DNA of 64,000 bases from a virus, in the IMG/VR virus record IMGVR_UViG_3300019776_000212, positions 32,212-96,211 of that record; one strand, 5' to 3'. Below, one piece after another: positions 1 to 64,000 of the stretch. The first letter of the stretch is position 1, and the number at the start of each line of letters is the position of its first letter. The notes under the pieces are model-generated. The model worked only from the letters and a program-made list of their open reading frames with translations, did no database searches and was not told where the DNA came from. A program made the translations under genes and the position numbers.

Positions 1-270
1 CTTGTGCGTGCAATCAATCTGCACAGGCTCAGGCCCTTTGAGCTTGGCGATACGCTTAGCTAACGCCTGCTGCCTACCCTCTAAGATTGCCCTAAGGTCA
101 AAGTAGTCATCCGCATCCATCTGGCCAGACTGAGACTCAAGCTCTGACAACAGCTTGTCTAAGTGGTCTGCCTGTTCTGCCGTTGGGTCTATCCGATAGC
201 GTAGGGGCTTTGGTGGCTTGGGCTCTTTTGCATTCTCAACCCAACTGGGCAAGCGTTGACGTCTGGCCAT
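1..270 (-). CDS. hypothetical protein, runs off window start
   Basis: Manual translation MARRQRLPSWVENAKEPKPP..., open to position 1, GAGG upstream; not in ORF track. Confidence 0.65.
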   Translation of the reverse strand, partial: MARRQRLPSWVENAKEPKPPKPLRYRIDPTAEQADHLDKLLSELESQSGQMDADDYFDLRAILEGRQQALAKRIAKLKGPEPVQIDCTHK

Positions 271-285
271 ACATAGTCCTCAGGT

Positions 286-317
286 GTAAAAATGCCCCGG
301 TGTTAACCGGGGCTTGG
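286..317 (-). terminator. intrinsic terminator
   Basis: GCCCCGGT/ACCGGGGC hairpin followed by T-run on minus strand. Confidence 0.65.
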
Positions 318-320
318 GCA

Positions 321-620
321 TTATCGAGAGTTCAGCAGGTAGTTGATATGTTCGGCGGTTACCCAACCGGCCTCCACCTTTGGTGAGACTTTAAAACCGT
401 CCGTTGCATTGCACACGCTGGCATTGCTGACCCCCAAGGCTTCGACAAGGGACATGTAAATGTCCCCTTTCACAGGGTGAACCGAGCATCCTGTCAGAAT
501 GACAAGCAGGGCCATCTGTTCAGCCGTAAGGCCCAGAATGTCGAAAGTTTCTGGCTTGGCTTCTGAGATAACCACCAACTCGGTTACCGCAGCACGGGCT
601 TTGTTCTTGACTACTTCCAC
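321..620 (-). CDS. early hypothetical protein (paralog of 635-946)
   Basis: AGGAG SD; N-terminus AVTE-x-EAKP-x-TFD-x-GL shared with neighbour. Confidence 0.8.
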   Translation of the reverse strand: MEVVKNKARAAVTELVVISEAKPETFDILGLTAEQMALLVILTGCSVHPVKGDIYMSLVEALGVSNASVCNATDGFKVSPKVEAGWVTAEHINYLLNSR

Positions 621-634
621 ATTCTTTCTCCTTG

Positions 635-946
635 TTAAAACTCTTTGCCGAATTCCGCCACGCAGTTATCCACGTGGGTTTTAGTGATTTCAAGATTCTG
701 GCCTCCGTTACTGGGACTCTTGTTCAGGTCGAAAAAGAAGTTATTGGGAAGTCCCGCCAACTTCCTCATACCCTCATAAAGGGCATAGCTCTGCTTGTTG
801 TCACCGCAAGTGCGTGCAACGGACATGATCAACACGGCCAACTGCGCTTCACTCAAACCTGTGAGGTCAAAGGTAGCGGGCTTGGCTTCTGTTACAGTTA
901 CAATTTCAGTTACTGCTGGAGTTGCTTGATGTTTGGTCAGTTGCAT
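635..946 (-). CDS. early hypothetical protein (paralog of 321-620)
   Basis: GGGGAG SD; shared N-terminal motif. Confidence 0.8.
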   Translation of the reverse strand: MQLTKHQATPAVTEIVTVTEAKPATFDLTGLSEAQLAVLIMSVARTCGDNKQSYALYEGMRKLAGLPNNFFFDLNKSPSNGGQNLEITKTHVDNCVAEFGKEF

Positions 947-948
947 AA

Positions 949-1080
949 TTACTCCCCTTGTTCAGTTTGGCGGCGAATGTCACGGCCAGCACGTTTCGAC
1001 TTGTCAGCTTTACGCAGTTCTTTCTGTGCTGCGCGGTATTCACGGTCGCTTGCGAAGTCCGAGGCTTTGAGTTGACGCAT
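949..1080 (-). CDS. small basic hypothetical protein (43 aa)
   Basis: Start reassigned to MRQLKASD, downstream of promoter and AAGGA SD. Confidence 0.65.
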   Translation of the reverse strand: MRQLKASDFASDREYRAAQKELRKADKSKRAGRDIRRQTEQGE

Positions 1081-1113
1081 TTTGTTTCTTCCTTTGTGTG
1101 TGTAGAGGTGTGT

Positions 1114-1142
1114 AGTATGTCTGCTATAAGGACTGCTGTCAA
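1114..1142 (-). promoter_or_regulatory. sigma70-type promoter
   Basis: TTGACA-17-CATACT. Confidence 0.75.
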
Positions 1143-1163
1143 GCAATCCCTATAACAAATTTT

Positions 1164-1415
1164 CTACTTACGTGGTGCCAGTGTGAGGACACCAGCATAC
1201 TGCCCGGTATTGGCAAGTTGCACCTGCCAGCCCAAGCTTTTACGGCACACCCCAGCAGCGCGGAGGGCTTCATAGATGGCACTCATGCCGCCACCGTAGT
1301 TGAACTGACCCACCACATTAAGCAGCAATTCAGCTTCATGTGCGGACAGATTGAGTGTTACGCTGCCAGCTTCCACAACTACTGTACGATCAGGGTTTTT
1401 GATTGCAGTTGCCAT
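1164..1415 (-). CDS. early hypothetical protein
   Basis: Tight gene packing; weak similarity to 321/635 family (TLxLSxxEAxLL...IYxAL). Confidence 0.75.
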   Translation of the reverse strand: MATAIKNPDRTVVVEAGSVTLNLSAHEAELLLNVVGQFNYGGGMSAIYEALRAAGVCRKSLGWQVQLANTGQYAGVLTLAPRK

Positions 1416-1418
1416 GTC

Positions 1419-1730
1419 TCAACCCTCTTTAGTTTGTTTGTCGAATCGATACTCAATACCGGCTACCTTTGCATAGGTGAGGGTGTCGAGATTGATAGTA
1501 CGGAATGCGTCAGCCGCACCAACATCCGCTACAGTGTAAAGCTCTGGCTTGTGTGCAGTAGTGGACTTTTCACGCTTGTTCTTGTCACCGCTTGCGAGCA
1601 TACGCTCTACAAACTTCTTGCACTGCATCTTACGGATGCTGCCGTCTTTCTTCACGAATTCAACAGCAAACATCTGACCTTTTGCAGAGTCGAGAATTGC
1701 GCGCTTACGTTCGATAGTTACGACTGCCAT
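1419..1730 (-). CDS. WYL_2/SH3-like putative nucleic-acid-binding protein
   Basis: FAVEFVKKDGSIRKM...FRTINL motif typical of this phage family. Confidence 0.55.
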   Translation of the reverse strand: MAVVTIERKRAILDSAKGQMFAVEFVKKDGSIRKMQCKKFVERMLASGDKNKREKSTTAHKPELYTVADVGAADAFRTINLDTLTYAKVAGIEYRFDKQTKEG

Positions 1731-1769
1731 TTTTTTTTTGTGTTACTCCGTTGCTTTCTGATGTTTGTC

Positions 1770-1797
1770 ATTCTACAGCGTTGTGGCTAGGTGTCAA
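1770..1797 (-). promoter_or_regulatory. sigma70-type promoter
   Basis: TTGACA-16-TAGAAT. Confidence 0.75.
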
Positions 1798-1812
1798 GCT
1801 TTTATTTGTGCC

Positions 1813-2172
1813 TTATTGCCCTCGGTTGTACAGTTGTTTGATCAGGACTTCGAACCACTGCACTTTGTAGGCATGGCATTTTGGGCAGGTAAGGCCACCT
1901 TCTGCCCTCATCTGTTTGAACTCTGGGTCAGTGCGAGCCAGAAGGCCACTAATGGAGATTGAGGTGTTCACCCCGCCCACTTTGTGTTCATAGTGGGCGC
2001 CCATTTCATTTGAGATTTCACGCTTGGCGTTTTCACGCTCAGCGTTCGACAACTTACCTTCTGCAAACATACCGTCAAGTACGTGGCACAGGTAGCTGCC
2101 CGGTCTGTAGGCTGGGCTTGAAAGGGCGGCACGCAGTACCTTGGAAGTGCGGCGAACTTTTGGGAGCGCCAT
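1813..2172 (-). CDS. hypothetical protein
   Basis: TAATG coupling to upstream gene; CPKC near C-terminus. Confidence 0.75.
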   Translation of the reverse strand: MALPKVRRTSKVLRAALSSPAYRPGSYLCHVLDGMFAEGKLSNAERENAKREISNEMGAHYEHKVGGVNTSISISGLLARTDPEFKQMRAEGGLTCPKCHAYKVQWFEVLIKQLYNRGQ

Positions 2173-2360
2173 TACTTAGCCCCCTTGCGGATCACCAGAA
2201 CGGGTGAGCCACTGATATTGTGCACGGTGCTCATCACTTCTTTACGTTGGCGGCTGCTGGCGTGAACGTCTACACCCCAGCGACGTACGGCCATCGCACC
2301 GTTATCTACAGCTTTGCCGAACGCACGGGCAGCAGAACGGGATTTGAATTGAATTTGCAT
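2172..2360 (-). CDS. small conserved phage hypothetical protein
   Basis: CAACGGAG SD; FKSRxAARAFGKxVDNG...RW motif. Confidence 0.75.
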   Translation of the reverse strand: MQIQFKSRSAARAFGKAVDNGAMAVRRWGVDVHASSRQRKEVMSTVHNISGSPVLVIRKGAK

Positions 2361-2401
2361 GATACTCTCCGTTGTAGGCTTGATTGCCTTGTGTGGTAAA
2401 G

Positions 2402-2430
2402 ATTCTAATCAATGCTGCTAACCTTGTCAA
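2402..2430 (-). promoter_or_regulatory. sigma70-type promoter
   Basis: TTGACA-17-TAGAAT. Confidence 0.8.
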
Positions 2431-2448
2431 CAGCATTTGTTAAAAGCT

Positions 2449-2661
2449 TTACTCAACCGTACACCAATTGTCTGTTCCGTAGTACTGGTGCACGAACCAT
2501 TCGCAATCGTCGAGGAAATCGGCCACTCCGTGCTCTTCCCAGTGAATCACGATCTTACCATCTTCACCACGTTTGATCGTATATACGATCTCATGGTCGT
2601 CACCTTGTGCAGTGAAGCGGTAACCGTCTGGTACATGGCTATTGTCAATGTTTCGTGTCAT
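2449..2661 (-). CDS. hypothetical protein
   Basis: TAAGGAG SD. Confidence 0.75.
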   Translation of the reverse strand: MTRNIDNSHVPDGYRFTAQGDDHEIVYTIKRGEDGKIVIHWEEHGVADFLDDCEWFVHQYYGTDNWCTVE

Positions 2662-3222: not shown

Positions 3223-3578
3223 CCGATATCAAAGAAGATTTCGTCATTCTCTGCATAGATGGAACGTGGCCCCATCGCCTTTGCAATCTCGTGAAGCTTG
3301 TCGCCAACGTCACCCCAACCACGATCCCAAAAACCCGTCCCGTGCCCGTTACGGGAAAGCCAGAGGTTGTGACCGATATCCGACCAATCAAGGTCAAGAC
3401 GTTCAAGGATTTCAGCAGCATCGGAAACAAACTTTGCAGCAACTTCCTTTGCCTCTTCGATTGCTGCGAGTGACCAGCTTGCACAAGTGTAGTCACCTTC
3501 ACACCCGTCAGCCCATTCAGCAGTTTCACGATACTGAACAGCGATTGCGATGATTGCGGTGTCGTTGTAATGCTTCAT
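3219..3578 (-). CDS. conserved acidic phage protein
   Basis: GHNLWLSRNGHGTGFWD motif seen in phage early proteins. Confidence 0.8.
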   Translation of the reverse strand: MKHYNDTAIIAIAVQYRETAEWADGCEGDYTCASWSLAAIEEAKEVAAKFVSDAAEILERLDLDWSDIGHNLWLSRNGHGTGFWDRGWGDVGDKLHEIAKAMGPRSIYAENDEIFFDIG

Positions 3579-3911: not shown

Positions 3912-4263
3912 GGCAGCACGTTTCAAAGCTGGCCCTCGACGGGGTCGGTGCCCATTCGCCTAAGCGCAGCCAATGCGAGGCTTGTTTGTGCCTGCCGTCT
4001 TTATGTTGGCACGAGACTTGCTAGCTCCAAAGTGTGACTCGATCCTAGTTTCTGGTCGAAAACGTGGAACACTCAGGAATCTCCGTGGAACAATGCTTAG
4101 CTCGCTAACTAAAATAGTTAGCCTCCTATCGAAATTGAGTAGCTCGCTAACTATCTCAACCCTCCCAGAAATATCTCCGCTCCCCCTGTGAAAAACTGTC
4201 CAGTTCCCAAATTTTAAAATCGCCCCAGTTCTAAAAATCTGTCGAGTTCCTAATTTTCCACAG

Positions 4264-32176: not shown

Positions 32177-32447
32177 AAATCTTCTCCTGCTCTGATCTCC
32201 AATCTCTCAGGGAATCAATTTGACTTCCACACTTGAGCAGATCGAATGCCGTCTTTACGTGTGCAACACCGACAGCCTGCATGTTATTTTCTGCCACCTT
32301 GGTTGGCTTGTTGCAAGCCATCACCAGTGACTCCGGTGGAACAATAAGGATCGTTTCCGTTTCCTTCACAATACGCGTCGTTGAGCAGCCTGACATACTC
32401 AGGATCAAGCTCGAACACAGAAGCGCTTGTAGGGCCTTTCTCAGCAT
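32160..32447 (-). CDS. o-spanin (Rz1-like lipoprotein)
   Basis: Lipobox MSGC, PP motif, overlaps i-spanin. Confidence 0.8.
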   Translation of the reverse strand: MLRKALQALLCSSLILSMSGCSTTRIVKETETILIVPPESLVMACNKPTKVAENNMQAVGVAHVKTAFDLLKCGSQIDSLRDWRSEQEKIYGRTK

Positions 32448-59470: not shown

Positions 59471-59618
59471 GTTAAAATTCCCTCTAAGATTGAACGACAA
59501 AACCCCCAGCTCCTAAGAACCGGGGGTTGATTGCAGGCTTATTCAGCCTTGTTTGACAACGAAGCAACGCGTTGTATTTTGGTGTCCTAGGAACGGTGCC
59601 GTTGTCTTCGGACATATT

Positions 59619-59694
59619 TGGTGCACGCTCTTGGTAACGATCCAAGTCCTACGGCTTTTCAAACCGTCGCTTCTACCTAGTTAGCTTAACATGC
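59619..59694 (-). tRNA. tRNA-Phe(GAA)
   Basis: Cloverleaf, CCA; T-loop ATCG variant. Confidence 0.85.
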
Positions 59695-59700
59695 ATTGTT

Positions 59701-59775
59701 TGGTGCGGGTGGAGAGAATCGAACTCTCATCCTCTGGGTGGAAGCCAGACATAATAGCCGTTATACGACACACGC
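59701..59775 (-). tRNA. tRNA-Gly(TCC)
   Basis: Cloverleaf, TTCGA, CCA. Confidence 0.9.
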
Positions 59776-59781
59776 ATTGTT

Positions 59782-59856
59782 TGGAGCACCTTGCTGGAAT
59801 CGAACCAGCCTACGTGGGTTTGCAATCCACGACCTAAGCCACTCGGACAAAGGCGC
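59782..59856 (-). tRNA. tRNA-Cys(GCA)
   Basis: Cloverleaf, U73, CCA. Confidence 0.9.
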
Positions 59857-59942
59857 ATTGTTAGTATTGAGAGGTAGCTTGCTCTGATCAGATTTCGCTA
59901 CAAACTTTCACCAGCCTAGCATCACATGGCCGATCCTCAAAT

Positions 59943-60016
59943 TGGGGTGACAGCGGGTTTCGATCCCTACCTGAGAGGTTCACAGCCTCTCGTGCTCCCA
60001 TTACACTACAGCCACC
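59943..60016 (-). tRNA. tRNA-His(GTG)
   Basis: Cloverleaf with G-1/C73. Confidence 0.8.
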
Positions 60017-60086
60017 ATTGATACTTGGTACAGGGACTCCAGTGGTGCTCATAACCTGCTGGCGCCTTGTTCCTGCCCATTTTAAT

Positions 60087-60160
60087 TGGTCACCCCGCGT
60101 GGAGTCGAACCACGGCCACCTCGTTCCAAACAAGGTACGCTACCGTAACGCTTCGGGGAG
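60087..60160 (-). tRNA. tRNA-Pro(TGG)
   Basis: Cloverleaf, CCA. Confidence 0.9.
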
Positions 60161-60165
60161 ATGAT

Positions 60166-60255
60166 TGGTGCGTCATGGTCGGAATCGAACCACGCAGTCG
60201 AAGGACACCGAGTTTACAGCCCGGCGGGAATCCCAGTTCCCATAAATCACGACGC
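60166..60255 (-). tRNA. tRNA-Tyr(GTA), atypical D/T arms
   Basis: CTGTAAA loop, long variable arm, CCA. Confidence 0.75.
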
Positions 60256-60260
60256 ATAAT

Positions 60261-60335
60261 TGGCTCCAGAGTGTGGGATCGAACCACAGACCAACCGGGT
60301 AACAACCGGACGCTCTACCGCTGAGCTACACTGGA
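60261..60335 (-). tRNA. tRNA-Asn(GTT)
   Basis: Cloverleaf, G73, CCA. Confidence 0.88.
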
Positions 60336-60853
60336 ATTTTACTAATTTCTCTGATGAACTCATCTTTGAAGTGGATTGGAACCCACTCACCACTTTCATC
60401 AGATACTGAGAACTTTTCGAGAAGAAGCTTTTCGGCTTGCCTTCTGTCGAGTGTAAACTCGTAATGAGTTACACTGTATGCTCTATATGGATCATATGTT
60501 TGGAACTGAGACAGCCTCTTTGCAAGGTCTGTAGTCATTCCAATCTTACAATGGTCTGGGAATGCGGGGTTCTCTATAAGATAGACAACTCCAGCTGGTA
60601 TCTCTGTAAGCTTCGCACCAAGATACACGTTATGTTTTATGAGGGTCCTACCTGCTAGCTTCCTAGCAAGTCGTTTGTCAGACGATCTCATCCTACCGTT
60701 ACCAGCTGTAAACAGCTCTCCGTAGGTTTGTACATAATCGGAGAGAATTTCCTCCGTTATCGTGTATGTTGTGTCTGGGATTTTACCAGACTTGTGAAGC
60801 GAATCAAGGACTTTTAACTCCTTGTTAGAGAAACCTTCCACAGAACCTCCCAT
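60326..60853 (-). CDS. GIY-YIG (T5orf172-like) free-standing endonuclease
   Basis: GVVYLI...KIGMT.....RL..FQT.P...E...GEW; likely GTG start at 60841. Confidence 0.75.
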   Translation of the reverse strand: MGGSVEGFSNKELKVLDSLHKSGKIPDTTYTITEEILSDYVQTYGELFTAGNGRMRSSDKRLARKLAGRTLIKHNVYLGAKLTEIPAGVVYLIENPAFPDHCKIGMTTDLAKRLSQFQTYDPYRAYSVTHYEFTLDRRQAEKLLLEKFSVSDESGEWVPIHFKDEFIREISKIPV

Positions 60854-60874
60854 GTAAGTTTGATTAAATTTAAG

Positions 60875-61050
60875 GCCCGTTACTTTTTGACTGCTCCACG
60901 GGGCCGGGACCAGAGATGCTGGATCACCTCCTTATATTGTGTGCACGCACACTATCAAGTTGGCTTACAATCTCACGATTGTGTTCTACAGCTTCTGTAA
61001 TGCACAGTTGTGGCGGACATCAGGGATGTATGGCCAATGTCGTGCATGTT
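60875..61050 (-). ncRNA. candidate ncRNA with 17-nt complement to the 16S rRNA 3' end
   Basis: TAAGGAGGTGATCCAGC at 60934-60918, no start codon downstream. Confidence 0.45.
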
Positions 61051-61053
61051 TGA

Positions 61054-61123
61054 TTTGAACGTGAGGCATGCTTGCTGGGATGTCCACTTAAGGAGGTCTG
61101 GGCTCTGATGCAGCACGTTCAAA
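61054..61123 (-). ncRNA. candidate hairpin RNA displaying anti-SD ACCUCCUUA
   Basis: 10-bp closing stem TTTGAACGTG/CACGTTCAAA. Confidence 0.45.
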
Positions 61124-61125
61124 TT

Positions 61126-61202
61126 TGTATTTGAATGGTTGGACTCGAACCAACGCACACCACTCCTGCGTGGCAGCTCTTCCGACTGAGCTTACATTCA
61201 AA
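61126..61202 (-). ncRNA. tRNA-like RNA with 6-nt anticodon loop, no CCA
   Basis: Canonical D and T arms; GCCAC-GCAGGA-GTGGT. Confidence 0.6.
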
Positions 61203-61204
61203 TT

Positions 61205-61286
61205 TGGTAGCGAGACCGTGAGTCGAACACGTAGGCATCCGGTTATGAGCCGGGTGACAGTACCCTCCAGTCTTAGCCATCTCGCT
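61205..61286 (-). tRNA. tRNA-Met(CAT), enlarged D region
   Basis: CTCATAA loop, TTCGA, CCA. Confidence 0.8.
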
Positions 61287-61292
61287 ATTGTT

Positions 61293-61368
61293 TGGCACAG
61301 AGAGCAGGGGTCGAACCCGCCTAAGCTTCCTTCGTAGGGAAGTGCCTATCCAATCGAGCCATCTCTGT
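61293..61368 (-). tRNA. tRNA-Arg(ACG)
   Basis: Cloverleaf, CCA. Confidence 0.88.
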
Positions 61369-61374
61369 ATTGTT

Positions 61375-61439
61375 TGGCGCCCTATCGTGCCCTTAGTGAA
61401 CACCTATGACGGTGTTCTGGGGCCCAGCACGAATCAGGC
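61375..61439 (-). ncRNA. CCA-ended rod-like hairpin
   Basis: TCGTGC/GCACGA and GAACACC/GGTGTTC stems, loop GTCATA, ends GCCA. Confidence 0.5.
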
Positions 61440-61445
61440 ATAAAT

Positions 61446-61519
61446 TGGTTGCCAGAGTTGGGAACGATCCAACTTCTCTCGCTTATCAGGCGAATGTAAT
61501 ACCTTTATACTATCCGGCA
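61446..61519 (-). tRNA. tRNA-Ile(GAT)
   Basis: Cloverleaf, CCA; T-loop ATCG variant. Confidence 0.82.
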
Positions 61520-61540
61520 GTTGTTTGGATTAACTAAAGT

Positions 61541-61620
61541 TGGTGGAGGTACCGTAGATTCGAACTCGGCTGATATTCACATTGCAAATGTGATGGCCAC
61601 TCCTAGCAGCCCCTACCCCC
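61541..61620 (-). tRNA. tRNA-Ala(TGC)
   Basis: G3:U70 pair, CCA. Confidence 0.82.
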
Positions 61621-61752
61621 ATGAAATTGTGCTTGGTGTGTCTCACTGAGGCAAGCCCCAAAGACATCAGGAATCCGCGTCAGCCCCAAGCAGCTAACCC
61701 TGTCAATTTGCCCGGCGACTACTACAGTAGTCCAGCCTGTCGGCCTGTTGCT

Positions 61753-61826
61753 TTGACGTATCAGGTTGCTAGATCTGATATCTCCTCCAGCACCCCCGGA
61801 GAGCTTTGCCTTTAAGCTAACGTCAA
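61753..61826 (-). ncRNA. degenerate tRNA-like cloverleaf
   Basis: TTGACGT/ACGTCAA, GCTT/AAGC, CTCC/GGAG, ATCAG/CTGAT; no TTCGA, no CCA. Confidence 0.5.
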
Positions 61827-61890
61827 CTAATGGGGCGTCTACCCCGTTCGATCAATAAGCCAGCAATAGGCATGATCCGACATTTGAAAT

Positions 61891-61964
61891 TGGTGCTCCA
61901 TCACAGAATCGAACTGCGTTCACGGCGTTACAAAGGCCGGGTAATACCAATATACGAAAAGAGC
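61891..61964 (-). tRNA. tRNA-Thr(TGT)
   Basis: Cloverleaf, C-C mismatch in anticodon stem, CCA. Confidence 0.78.
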
Positions 61965-62008
61965 ATGGCTGGCCTGTATTTAAAGTCGTCAGGCTCCCCG
62001 CGACTATT

Positions 62009-62084
62009 TGGCGAGTAATACGGGAGTCGAACCCGCAGCGACCACATAGACAGTGTGGCTTCCTTCCCAGAGGAATCATTACCC
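62009..62084 (-). tRNA. tRNA-Asp(GTC)
   Basis: Cloverleaf, G73, CCA. Confidence 0.9.
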
Positions 62085-62090
62085 ATTATT

Positions 62091-62166
62091 TGGTACAGTA
62101 TGTCGGATTCGAACCGACGTCTTCCTGATTGAAAGTCAGGCATCCTAACCGCTAGACGAATACTGT
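62091..62166 (-). tRNA. tRNA-Glu(TTC)
   Basis: Cloverleaf, CCA. Confidence 0.9.
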
Positions 62167-62174
62167 ATTGTTAG

Positions 62175-62251
62175 TGGTAGGGGCGGAGAGATTCGAACTC
62201 TCACTTTACTGATTCTAAGCCAGTCACCTCTCCCAGTTGGGCTACGCCCCC
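62175..62251 (-). tRNA. tRNA-Leu(TAG), short variable arm
   Basis: Cloverleaf, CCA. Confidence 0.88.
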
Positions 62252-62259
62252 ACTATTTG

Positions 62260-62391
62260 TTACTTACCCTGACGTTGTTTACCAGAGTAGGGATTCTTTT
62301 CTTTCAAGCCTTTATTCGGATGACCTTTAGAAGGTGTCTTCGAACGCTCAACTGGAGCATGTTCTTTGGTTGCATCATACGGCTTAGCCAT
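62260..62391 (-). CDS. small basic protein (43 aa)
   Basis: Manual: MAKPYDATKEHAPVERSKTPSKGHPNKGLKEKNPYSGKQRQGK; AAGGAG SD; promoter TTGACA-16-TACAAT near 62425-62452. Confidence 0.65.
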   Translation of the reverse strand: MAKPYDATKEHAPVERSKTPSKGHPNKGLKEKNPYSGKQRQGK

Positions 62392-62480
62392 CTTGTTGCT
62401 CTCCTTGTGTCTGTGTATATGCTCATTGTAGCAGGAAATTTACTCCTGTCAACAACTTTGTGAATCTTTTTTTTTTTATT

Positions 62481-62557
62481 TGGCAGCCCTGCATGGATTC
62501 GAACCATGTCTACAAACTTAGAAGGATTGTGTGCTAATTCCCTTACACTACAAGGCC
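62481..62557 (-). tRNA. tRNA-Arg(TCT)
   Basis: Cloverleaf, CCA. Confidence 0.88.
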
Positions 62558-62567
62558 ATATAAAATT

Positions 62568-62741
62568 GTACAGAGGTGTGCTATTACGCCAAAGGGAGAT
62601 TCAGCCTTACCGTTTCCGGGGTGCCTCTTCACTTTGCCAGTGTACGTCCCTCCACCCCACTACAGAGCTTCAACGAGCTGATAGTACACCTAGTCCCACT
62701 CTTTAAAGGATGGCTGCTTCTAAGCCCACCTTCCACTGTAC
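62568..62741 (-). ncRNA. 23S rRNA GTPase-associated-centre (uL11 site) mimic RNA
   Basis: AGGTGGGCTTAGAAGCAGCCATCCTTTAAAGAGTG...CGTAATAGCACAC, closed by GTACAG/CTGTAC. Confidence 0.7.
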
Positions 62742-62748
62742 TTTAAAT

Positions 62749-62824
62749 TGGCGGGCCACCAAGGAGTCGAACCTTGAACCTGAGGATTTGGAATCCACTG
62801 CTCTGCCAGTTGAGCTAATGACCC
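62749..62824 (-). tRNA. tRNA-Trp(CCA)
   Basis: Cloverleaf, CCA. Confidence 0.9.
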
Positions 62825-62929
62825 TGAATTCGAGGGAGACATTTATAGCACGCTGTCTCCTGAGCGTCAACATGCAAGAGTTGGTTTCTTGCACACATCC
62901 CAAGGCGCTTGGAGTCTCAGGTATGTTCT

Positions 62930-63508
62930 CTAGTTATCACCATAGCCATCAAACGGATTGAACGTTCCGACAAACTGGGCGTAACCTCTTTCAGCAAACT
63001 TATCTGTGGCAATCTTCCATCCCAATCTCACCCGAAGGTCTTTGGTTGGGTTTGCACCAGCCCACGGCTTGATGAGGTAGTATTCGAAGCCTACCAGCTT
63101 ACCACCCTGCTTGTCAAACACTTTCATGAAGTAGTGGCCGGGAATTTTGTACTTGTCGCTGATGTTAAGGTTGCCTGTGTGAGTAATCACATAATCAGCA
63201 CTGTACGGCAACGACATACGTCTTGCAAGCCCGTAGAGCGGATTTCTAAGCATCCAGAACACTCGGTTGATGTAACCCTTGAGCCCTGTCAATTCATTCG
63301 TGAAAGGGGCTCGTTTGGTGTGGTAGCCTTTGTCACCTTGAGGAGGGTTGTCGTGTGTACCCCAAATCCAGCCCCACGTGTATGTGTCTTTTCGCTCCCA
63401 TTCCTGTGCTCTCGTGAACAAAGGGATAATTATGGCAGCTGGCAAAGCCGTGAAGATTAGCATGAACAGATCAAGGATCAGCAATGCAAACCATTTGATG
63501 TAGATCAC
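62930..63508 (-). CDS. conserved membrane-anchored phage protein
   Basis: N-terminal TM helix; YxNRVxWxxRNPxYG motif; AGGAG SD. Confidence 0.8.
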   Translation of the reverse strand: MIYIKWFALLILDLFMLIFTALPAAIIIPLFTRAQEWERKDTYTWGWIWGTHDNPPQGDKGYHTKRAPFTNELTGLKGYINRVFWMLRNPLYGLARRMSLPYSADYVITHTGNLNISDKYKIPGHYFMKVFDKQGGKLVGFEYYLIKPWAGANPTKDLRVRLGWKIATDKFAERGYAQFVGTFNPFDGYGDN

Positions 63509-63525
63509 GCGTATCTCCTATTGTT

Positions 63526-63600
63526 TGGCAGCCCCGCTAGGATTCGAACCTAGAATACGTGAGTCAAAGTCACGTGTGATAACCATTTCACTACAGAGCA
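63526..63600 (-). tRNA. tRNA-Gln(TTG)
   Basis: Cloverleaf, CCA. Confidence 0.9.
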
Positions 63601-63606
63601 ACTGTT

Positions 63607-63684
63607 TGGTAGTCCGTGTAGGATTCGAACCTACATCACACCCGTTTTGAGCGGGCGAAGTCTTCCAGTTGCAATCAACGGACC
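63607..63684 (-). tRNA. tRNA-Leu(CAA), short variable arm
   Basis: Cloverleaf, CCA. Confidence 0.85.
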
Positions 63685-63857
63685 ATAGAATTTGGCGCAG
63701 TTTATGAGGGCTCTTACCCCTGCTCTTTTACCGTCTTCAACCGCGAAATGACGGGGCTAGCTTACTTTCTGTACCGTCGTACAGTTAATTTGATTTGAAG
63801 CTCGGACAATGTACGCTCTATTTGGCAGTCCGATCTTTTTAAGAGACACTTCAAATT

Positions 63858-63946
63858 TGGAGGCGCGTGAAGGAATCGAACCCTTGCCGTATCTCTACAG
63901 CAGCCGGGGGTTCAAGCCCCGTTTGTACCCTTTGTAGCCACACGCC
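63858..63946 (-). tRNA. tRNA-Ser(TGA)
   Basis: Long variable arm, TTCGA, CCA. Confidence 0.8.
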
Positions 63947-64000
63947 AGAAATTGTGAACTGCCCTTGCCAAGGGATTGACGGTGGACCTTGCCACTGCCC

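Follow-up and report, generated by a model that had tools for sequence, protein, structure and literature searches.

A tRNA operon of an Otagovirus-like Pseudomonas phage as a probable modular platform for diverse small RNAs

Phage tRNA clusters that also encode other stable RNAs have been described in T5 and T4. The reference genome of T5 (NC_005859) annotates eight stable RNAs of unassigned function within its tRNA region (RNAI, RNAIII, RNAIV, RNA1, RNA2, RNA2H, RNA3 and RNAX), of which three are called tRNA-like and one, RNA3 (73 nucleotides, nt), abuts a tRNA; the same region contains small open reading frames (ORFs), HNH homing endonucleases and internal promoters. In T4, RNAC and RNAD (the species 1 and 2 RNAs) are transcribed from the tRNA region, and their role is still unassigned (PMC3014915; PMC9697503). 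The locus analyzed here is an array of tRNA genes and other segments at positions 59500–63947 of a 64,000-nt stretch of viral DNA, hereafter the window (positions 32,212 to 96,211 of IMG/VR record IMGVR_UViG_3300019776_000212). This viral record is 96.2 kb long, of which the window takes up the last 64 kb, and the ends of the record overlap by 21 base pairs (bp), indicating a circular assembly. The closest relatives were found to be six Pseudomonas phages, namely the P. putida phages vB_PpuM-Kassivere, NoPa, KoPa-4, Amme-3 and Roomu-2 along with phage XD2, with the Otagovirus members UNO-G1W1, phiPsa374, VCM and Bobbio being farther relatives. The locus constitutes a tRNA operon, and the phage that carries it is an Otagovirus-like Pseudomonas phage.

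As in T5, the window holds a same-strand tRNA cluster interleaved with non-tRNA, non-coding segments and, as in T4, small non-tRNA RNAs appear to be encoded within the tRNA cluster. Mixed clusters of tRNAs and stable RNAs being known from the annotation of T5 and from reports on T4, the architecture of the array is not new, although a preliminary description of the window had believed such an arrangement to be undescribed. Comparison of the window elements with the T5 region by blastn gave only tRNA-type or chance matches. The two loci also differ in that no relation to rRNA is annotated for the T5 RNAs, and in that the T5 RNAs have been seen experimentally whereas those of the window are predicted only.

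The favoured reading, to which a probability of roughly 0.6 is given, is that the array is a modular tRNA operon from which small RNAs of diverse kinds are expressed, and not one coordinated decoy system. The operon would be built like the T5 and T4 tRNA regions from same-strand modules with sigma-70-type promoters and one terminator at the end, and the slots between its tRNAs would serve three uses: the expression of non-tRNA RNAs, the housing of selfish nuclease genes, and small ORFs. In tRNA maturation, RNase P acts at the 5′ end, and RNase E with exonuclease trimming acts at the 3′ CCA. An RNA situated between two tRNAs would be freed as a by-product of this process, with RNase P cleaving in front of the downstream tRNA, and the trimming by RNase E and exonucleases taking place behind the CCA of the upstream one. 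Release by ordinary tRNA maturation would therefore require no special assumption, unlike the stability and the function of the released RNAs. The passengers are heterogeneous and have been gained and lost independently, these being S2, S6, S1, S4a and cassettes with AUUUGA/UCAAAU ends (designations and coordinates are given in Table 1). Modular gain and loss is seen when the presence and absence of spacers is scored against 12 related arrays.

The passenger with the clearest relation to a host RNA is S2. The GTPase-associated centre (GAC) of bacterial 23S rRNA comprises helices H42–H44 (Escherichia coli positions 1051–1108) and binds uL11 and thiostrepton. All spacers were screened for exact matches to the E. 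coli 5S, 16S and 23S rRNAs in both senses, with shuffled sequences as the comparison. S2 was found to share 40 nt at 87.5% identity with E. coli 23S rRNA, including an exact run of 18 nt at the H43 loop, and an Rfam match to large subunit rRNA was obtained at 62682–62735. The H43-loop core GGCUUAGAAGCAGCCAUC is present with a compensatory 1058/1080-type pair, the H44-loop motif GCGUAAUAGCAC lies 3′ of the core (the window copy being GCGTAATAGCAC, 136 nt after the core), and the H42-like closing helix is GUACAG/CUGUAC, with UUUGGCGUAAYAGCAC being the 3′ motif of the family. S2 differs from the GAC in being free-standing outside any 23S gene, in having its H43 and H44 parts separated by an insert of approximately 110 nt, and in being encoded by a phage among tRNAs. 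No similarity to E. coli 23S rRNA was detected beyond the GAC, with only query positions 10–49 aligning. A true 23S gene or a captured rRNA fragment was not supported, and none of 118 viral matches aligned over 120 nt or more. A pattern search of the window revealed no sarcin-ricin-like motif in the S2 insert, such a motif being present in one other member of the family.

The 17-mer core of S2 was found in at least 117 IMG/VR viral contigs, none of which represents a true 23S gene. Among the 49 unique members of this GAC-mimic family (window included), the 8-bp closing helix is 82–98% paired with two to six pair types per position, while slid registers pair far less at most positions (mostly 14–55%). 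The 1058/1080-type pair of H43 is paired in 98% of the members and occurs as four Watson-Crick types. Conservation and covariation are therefore both observed in this family. A tRNA lies within 1 kb of 67 of 97 unique sites, in every case on the same strand (67/67) and at a median distance of 170 nt. The homolog of S2 in UNO-G1W1 occupies the identical slot between tRNA-Trp and tRNA-Arg. Other cultured carriers are pf16, Milchi, Astolliot, Aeromonas phage 4_4572, XacN1, XaC1, GAP32 and CBB; the element is annotated in none of the cultured carriers, and T4, in contrast to the window phage, was not among the phages found with the core. No entry of Rfam 15 matched the family and no description of it turned up in literature searches. 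It should also be noted that the inserts of the family are very diverse (45–311 nt) with the recurrent words GGUAAGG, UGCGAAA and CACCCC, and that the window insert (62590–62700) contains CACCCC and GGUAAGG. By these comparisons S2 is a predicted member of a large, covarying, tRNA-linked family of phage RNAs that copies the uL11 site, and it may act as a free imitation of the uL11 or factor-binding site. RNAs of phages that imitate the RNA component of a defence system are known, examples being RNA anti-CRISPRs and the pseudo-ToxI of phage PhiTE. S2 is similar to these in being a phage RNA that imitates a host RNA, but the imitated RNA is a ribosomal site instead.

A second passenger with a relation to rRNA is S6, which is 81–87% conserved in all six close relatives with UAUAAGGAGGUGAUCCAGC being invariant. 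Its 17-mer is present in seven of seven arrays (window and the six relatives), against an identity of only about 75% for the DNA of the 192-aa ORF in these phages, and includes 15 nt antisense to E. coli 16S rRNA, compared with a 95th percentile of 12 for shuffled sequences. We take the 17-mer to be the perfect complement of a Pseudomonas-type 16S 3′ end, the tail sequence of which is assumed here. Compensatory changes were detected in the two hairpins that flank it. Another role for the 17-mer was considered and rejected. It does not represent a Shine-Dalgarno (SD) site for a conserved ORF, since the only nearby start, a GUG, overlaps it instead of lying 4–12 nt downstream, a 2-nt indel in XD2 breaks the frame and the relatives have tRNA-Asn next with no ORF. 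Elsewhere among viruses a 14-mer of the 16S complement was not linked to tRNAs, with three of 118 matches near a tRNA. The 5′ part of S6 (window 61005–61053; XD2 locus 3982–4048) is a hairpin slot closed by (A/U)UGCAC...GUGCA(U/A); XD2, the window and the P. putida phages each have a wholly different interior there, next to a conserved downstream core. S6 is under sequence constraint, would expose or sequester the 17-mer, and may pair with the 16S tail. S2 and S6 most likely have the ribosome or its factors as their targets, whether acting away from the 30S and 50S subunits or on them.

S1 is located directly upstream of tRNA-Leu and consists of a 5′ hairpin (CUGUAC-GACG-GUACAG) followed by AAAGUAAGC and the 16-mer GGGGUAAGAGCCCUCA, with tRNA-Leu beginning approximately 22 nt past the end of the motif. 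The motif GGGGUAAGAGYCCUCA was identified in 31 IMG/VR contigs (33 sites). Of the 33 sites, 18 have a same-strand tRNA beginning 30–47 nt downstream, and no nearest tRNA was found on the opposite strand. Family members share a layout, which the window copy fits, of a 5′ hairpin, AAAGUAA(A/G)C, an invariant hairpin motif (5 bp with a 7-nt loop) and then a same-strand tRNA. Conservation is accompanied by covariation, as the structure given by RNAalifold for 11 members has 20 pairs, of which 11 show double compensatory changes, and contains a long-range helix of 8 bp. A covariance model (R1) built without the window copy matched XD2 (32.5 bits, E 8e-5) and NoPa (E 0.018), each directly 5′ of a tRNA, and the architecture of S1 is common to both of these phages. 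The family is typically about 110–130 nt in length, often has a CCA-like 3′ end, occurs in phages of 30–430 kb, and had no Rfam match in the window scan. On this evidence S1 is probably a divergent member of a widespread family of RNAs preceding tRNAs.

Among the remaining conserved spacers, S4a is conserved to the same degree as the best tRNAs, with 100% identity in five relatives and 98.4% in XD2, although the tRNA-Thr next to it is only 76% identical in that phage. No homolog of S4a was detected in IMG/VR or in cultured phages beyond the six relatives. Its sequence is constrained, apparently to a degree like that of a tRNA. In Kassivere (locus 3447–3492) and NoPa (locus 3503–3548) an extra hairpin of about 46 nt with the end ...GGACAACCA lies between tRNA-Thr and S4a, which the window is without. 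S7 shows a compensatory change from CCAG/CUGG to UCAG/CUGA when compared with VCM, and no true homolog of S7 or of E5 was found in IMG/VR.

These conserved spacers could also be understood as cis-acting parts of the operon, such as leaders, processing guides, RNase E entry sites or attenuators, through which the neighbouring tRNAs would be tuned in their transcription or maturation. The fixed distance of the S1-family motif upstream of a same-strand tRNA is in keeping with such a role, as is the position of S4a, which directly follows tRNA-Thr, and all elements adjoin tRNA ends via AU-rich linkers. However, the S1 family precedes tRNAs as varied as Asp, Asn, Met, Trp, Gly, Thr, Val and Leu and so is not tRNA-specific, 30 of the 97 GAC-mimic sites lie more than 1 kb from any tRNA, and neither an almost exact copy of the uL11 site nor a perfect 17-nt complement of the 16S tail has an obvious role in tRNA processing. 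A cis-acting function for the conserved spacers is considered unlikely.

A different class of spacer is formed by the cassettes E1–E5 and S5, which are delimited by complementary ends. The five closing stems quoted in the preliminary description were all located at the coordinates given there, and the style which it saw them as sharing is real, recurring in relatives on unrelated interiors. Other cassettes, of 64–106 nt, are found in the related phages, with (A)UUUGA as the first letters right after a tRNA CCAA and UCAAA(U) as the last; within these 'CCAA|AUUUGA...UCAAAU' ends the inner stem pairs vary yet stay complementary. E2, E3, E4 and S5 are exact insertions relative to the related phages, and no homolog of E1–E4 or S5 was found in the 12 related arrays. 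In NoPa the slot of E1 is occupied by a different interior with UUGAAGCA ends. E5 is homologous to a 72-nt cassette (AUUUGAGAG...CUCUCAAAU) located in another slot, between tRNA-Tyr and tRNA-Pro, of the Kassivere-type phages, with the hairpin loop conserved in both. Stems of the ATTTGAA type of at least 8 bp are confined to the array in this genome. The exact insertion boundaries, these array-only stems and the recurrence of ends on unrelated interiors indicate that the cassettes are real units.

Other measures were less telling. As bare stems, only those of E4 (10–11 bp) and E3 (8–9 bp) exceed chance, with those of E1 (7–8 bp), E2 (7 bp) and E5 (5 bp) not doing so, and perfect closing stems of at least 8 bp show no enrichment in the array, where there are 8 in 6.9 kb, over the other 89 kb of the genome, where there are 80. 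Fold stability cannot discriminate, since interiors have a mean z of −0.6 in the cassettes and −0.3 in true tRNAs and most spacers fold like shuffles. The Rfam scan of the spacers, advocated in the preliminary description, yielded the match in S2 and a tRNA match at E3, but no tRNA match at E up to 1 for E1, E2, E4, E5, S5 or S7, for which relaxed ARAGORN likewise made no call. E3 bears out the claim that tRNA-shaped non-tRNAs exist in the array: its Rfam tRNA score is 40.6 bits against a threshold of 29, its anticodon loop has 8 nt (ARAGORN, 'cagg') or 6 nt (minimum free energy fold) in place of the canonical 7, with a base other than U at position 33, and unlike all its neighbours it encodes no CCA, ending in ...UCAAAUAC. 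It is predicted to be a well-formed tRNA body that cannot decode normally.

E1–E5 and S5 may instead be non-functional, that is, decayed tRNA genes or scars and passengers of recombination or homing endonucleases, the stems being inverted repeats at the DNA level or recombination ends. The presence of the cassettes varies among close relatives with boundaries falling exactly at the repeats, their unrelated interiors fold like shuffles, and a homologous cassette sits in a different slot in Kassivere. Genes of the homing-endonuclease type are also found in such arrays, namely the 175-amino-acid (aa) ORF of the window (MUG113/T5orf172) and HNH genes in KoPa-4 and T5. Against this, the stems are perfect and at 8–11 bp are longer than a decaying 7-bp acceptor stem, the inner stem positions vary among cassettes and are always complementary, and a hairpin loop has been conserved between E5 and its Kassivere counterpart. 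An active miniature transposon would be expected to leave identical genome copies and a visible target-site duplication; a miniature inverted-repeat mobile element was rejected for E1–E5, which have inverted ends but no repeated copies in the genome and no target-site duplication at empty sites. A BLAST comparison of the genome with itself detected no internal repeats besides tRNA arms. This explanation also leaves S1, S2, S4a and S6 uncovered. An origin of E1–E5 and S5 as debris is regarded as somewhat unlikely, and the cassettes could be either fast-evolving functional RNAs or recombination debris.

The preliminary description had proposed that the array as a whole forms a single module, made of RNA only, for counter-defence or the takeover of translation. 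All its parts would be excised by tRNA-processing RNases and would be decoys for host systems directed against the translation machinery. Such a role would extend to other RNAs what is known of phage tRNAs that counter tRNA-cleaving defences, those of T5 bypassing anticodon nucleases, retron effectors and PARIS (PMC10264068; PMC11555353). The defence-bypassing tRNAs occupy the same genomic compartment, a cluster supplying translation components during infection, but they are functional decoding tRNAs, whereas the window elements are non-decoding RNAs whose link to any defence would be conjectural. The relation of S2 and S6 to rRNA sites and the aberrant tRNA body of E3 would suit such a module, and the hypervariable cassettes with constant ends could stem from an arms race. 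One spacer, S2, does bear out the proposed rRNA-site mimics. Yet no spacer other than S2 and S6 matched rRNA beyond the level of shuffles. E4 was rejected as an unsupported anti-SD mimic, since its 9-mer ACCUCCUUA occurs at chance (sense 8-mers of the 16S tail on the transcript strand numbered 9 against 15 expected in 100 kb of arrays), and the supposed CCA-minihelices did not rise above background, with five non-tRNA CCAA[A/T] ends against approximately 4.7 expected. The spacers do not form one coherent set, as the elements are gained and lost independently among relatives and several segments are promoters, leaders, a terminator or a homing-endonuclease-like gene. Conservation in relatives holds for S4a and S6 in the six closest phages and for S2 in UNO-G1W1, but E1–E4 and S5 are absent. 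Furthermore, the GAC is not known to be targeted by any defence system. The coordinated module is not supported by these comparisons and is judged to be quite improbable.

The reading of the array as a modular expression platform must itself be weighed against several points. The release and stability of the spacer RNAs would have to be assumed, with release drawn from established tRNA processing. Among the other loci fetched, no co-occurrence of the GAC-mimic and S1 families was seen, which argues against an obligate linkage between the passengers and also counts against the coordinated module. In S6, the helices that would sequester the 17-mer are invariant and so provide no covariation for or against them. 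The match of the S1-family model in the window is weak (63689–63784, 18.3 bits, E ~0.1), and the long-range helix of the family is not evident there. Finally, E1–E4 and S5 are unique to this phage, have interiors that fold no better than shuffles, and could be non-functional.

Regarding the layout of the array, every element lies on the minus strand, and 20 tRNA genes and one aberrant tRNA-like gene (E3) were identified, consistent with the interleaving of 20 tRNAs with non-tRNA spacers noted previously. Strict ARAGORN, relaxed ARAGORN and Rfam 15 (RF00005, gathering threshold 29 bits) were used for tRNA calling. The strict ARAGORN search gave 16 tRNAs in the window. Rfam added Ser-UGA and Tyr, both with a long arm, and the tRNA-like sequence at 61130–61201, and relaxed ARAGORN added Ala-UGC, Met-CAU and an odd tRNA at 61130–61202. 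The array runs past the end of the window into the start of the record, where tRNA-Val, an HNH-type ORF, tRNA-Lys and tRNA-Ser(GCU) are encoded; with the three tRNAs found there, all 20 amino acids are covered. This upstream part (window 63948–64000 into record positions 22–2500, minus strand) also has two sigma-70-like promoters, a small ORF, and a spacer of approximately 165 nt with GGGGUAAGG near the three tRNAs. In Kassivere-type phages and VCM, matches to the S1-family model were obtained at the position of this spacer, directly 5′ of tRNA-Ser.

The array also contains three ORFs, two promoters (one of which is only promoter-like) and one terminator. The segments that are neither tRNA nor ORF number about 12–13 and are 44–270 nt long, two of them being chiefly promoter and 5′ leader. 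The promoter-like site was read from the sequence, having been missed by the promoter scan because its last base is not T. The DNA of the 192-aa ORF is only about 75% identical among seven phages (window and the six closest relatives), and relatives of its DUF7338 protein occur in 169 phage records, including Felixounavirus-like, Aeromonas T4-like, Bacillus and cyanobacterial phages. The 43-aa protein is very basic, belongs to no Pfam family, has a strong promoter and ribosome-binding site of its own and is conserved across Otagovirus-like phages. The 175-aa ORF overlaps the first 10 nt of tRNA-Asn and is missing from all relatives compared, a pattern expected of a mobile nuclease gene.

Table 1. 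Features of the tRNA array in the window, listed in the direction of the minus strand.
Feature	Position	Strand	Support or remarks
tRNA-Ser(UGA), long variable arm	63861..63947	-	Rfam tRNA clan; 89% identity to annotated tRNA-Ser of Kassivere, NoPa, XD2
E1: 62-nt cassette closed by AUUUGAAG/CUUCAAAU	63794..63855	-	Absent from relatives
S1: structured RNA, 3′ end ...GCCAAAUUCUAU, directly 5′ of tRNA-Leu	63685..63793	-	
tRNA-Leu(CAA)	63607..63684	-	ARAGORN, Rfam
tRNA-Gln(UUG)	63526..63600	-	ARAGORN, Rfam
ORF 192 aa, DUF7338 / phrog_2143	62930..63508	-	Conserved in many phages, inside their tRNA arrays
Spacer with promoter-like TTGACG-17-TATAAA (62870-62842)	62825..62929	-	3′ 46 nt 93-96% conserved in relatives
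tRNA-Trp(CCA)	62749..62824	-	ARAGORN, Rfam
S2: predicted mimic of 23S H42-H44 (GAC, uL11 site), split by ~110-nt insert	62558..62748	-	Between tRNA-Trp and tRNA-Arg
tRNA-Arg(UCU)	62481..62557	-	ARAGORN, Rfam
A-run, sigma-70 promoter TTGACA-16-TACAAT (62452-62425; 11/12 matches), ribosome-binding site of 43-aa ORF	62392..62480	-	
ORF 43 aa, basic, phrog_11200	62260..62391	-	Conserved in relatives
tRNA-Leu(UAG)	62175..62251	-	ARAGORN, Rfam
tRNA-Glu(UUC)	62091..62166	-	ARAGORN, Rfam
tRNA-Asp(GUC)	62009..62084	-	ARAGORN, Rfam
S3: 44-nt spacer, small hairpin	61965..62008	-	92% conserved in 4 P. putida phages; fold z -0.96
tRNA-Thr(UGU)	61891..61964	-	ARAGORN, Rfam
S4a: 63-nt two-hairpin element	61827..61890	-	Directly follows tRNA-Thr
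E2: 74-nt cassette closed by UUGACGU/ACGUCAA	61753..61826	-	Insertion; no homolog
S4b: rest of Thr-to-Ala spacer	61622..61752	-	Partly conserved
tRNA-Ala(UGC), G3:U70, enlarged D region	61541..61620	-	Relaxed ARAGORN; 98% identity in XD2
tRNA-Ile(GAU)	61446..61519	-	ARAGORN, Rfam
S5: rod-like hairpin with end GCCAAACAAU	61369..61445	-	Fold z -2.75; insertion
tRNA-Arg(ACG)	61293..61368	-	ARAGORN, Rfam
tRNA-Met/Ile2(CAU)-like, oversized, 8-bp acceptor stem	61205..61287	-	Relaxed ARAGORN (~61205-61287); 80% conserved in relatives
E3: cloverleaf, AUUUGAAUG ends, no encoded CCA	61130..61202	-	Rfam, ARAGORN; insertion
E4: 70-nt cassette, 10-11-bp closing stem, contains ACCUCCUUA	61054..61123	-	Fold z -3.9; insertion
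S6: conserved structured RNA with UAAGGAGGUGAUCCAGC (60920-60936)	60854..61053	-	
ORF 175 aa, MUG113/T5orf172 (GIY-YIG-like) domain	60326..60853	-	Between S6 and tRNA-Asn
tRNA-Asn(GUU)	60261..60335	-	ARAGORN, Rfam
tRNA-Tyr(GUA), long variable arm	60170..60255	-	Rfam, relaxed ARAGORN; 93% identity in UNO-G1W1 and VCM
tRNA-Pro(UGG)	60087..60160	-	ARAGORN, Rfam
S7: hairpin with end ...CUGUACCA	60016..60086	-	85% identity after tRNA-Pro of phage VCM
tRNA-His(GUG)	59943..60015	-	ARAGORN, Rfam
E5: cassette with UUUGAGG...CCUCUCAA ends	59857..59942	-	
tRNA-Cys(GCA)	59782..59856	-	ARAGORN, Rfam
tRNA-Gly(UCC)	59701..59775	-	ARAGORN, Rfam
tRNA-Phe(GAA)	59619..59694	-	ARAGORN, Rfam
S8: trailer, weak hairpin with ACCA end (z -1.1), then intrinsic terminator 59528-59501 (12 pairs)	59500..59618	-	3′ 55 nt conserved 79-84%

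A wider proposal, which is speculative and to which little probability is attached, is that in large phages the slots between tRNAs serve generally as an exchangeable platform for launching RNAs directed at the ribosome, with S2 and S6, together with variant tRNAs and tRNA-shaped cassettes, reprogramming or shielding host translation, and that this would also be the function of the stable RNAs of T4 and T5. Such non-tRNA stable RNAs have been known in these two phages for decades, and the present array offers concrete candidate targets for two RNAs of this kind, namely uL11 or the GAC and the 3′ tail of 16S rRNA. At least two passengers appear to belong to covarying families that extend across many uncultured large phages, both apparently undescribed, and the slots are quickly remodelled among close relatives. 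As cultured relatives carry individual elements, with the GAC mimic present in UNO-G1W1 and pf16 and both the putative 16S-complement RNA and S4a in phages of P. putida KT2440, the contribution of these RNAs to infection by Otagovirus-like phages may be studied directly at the bench.

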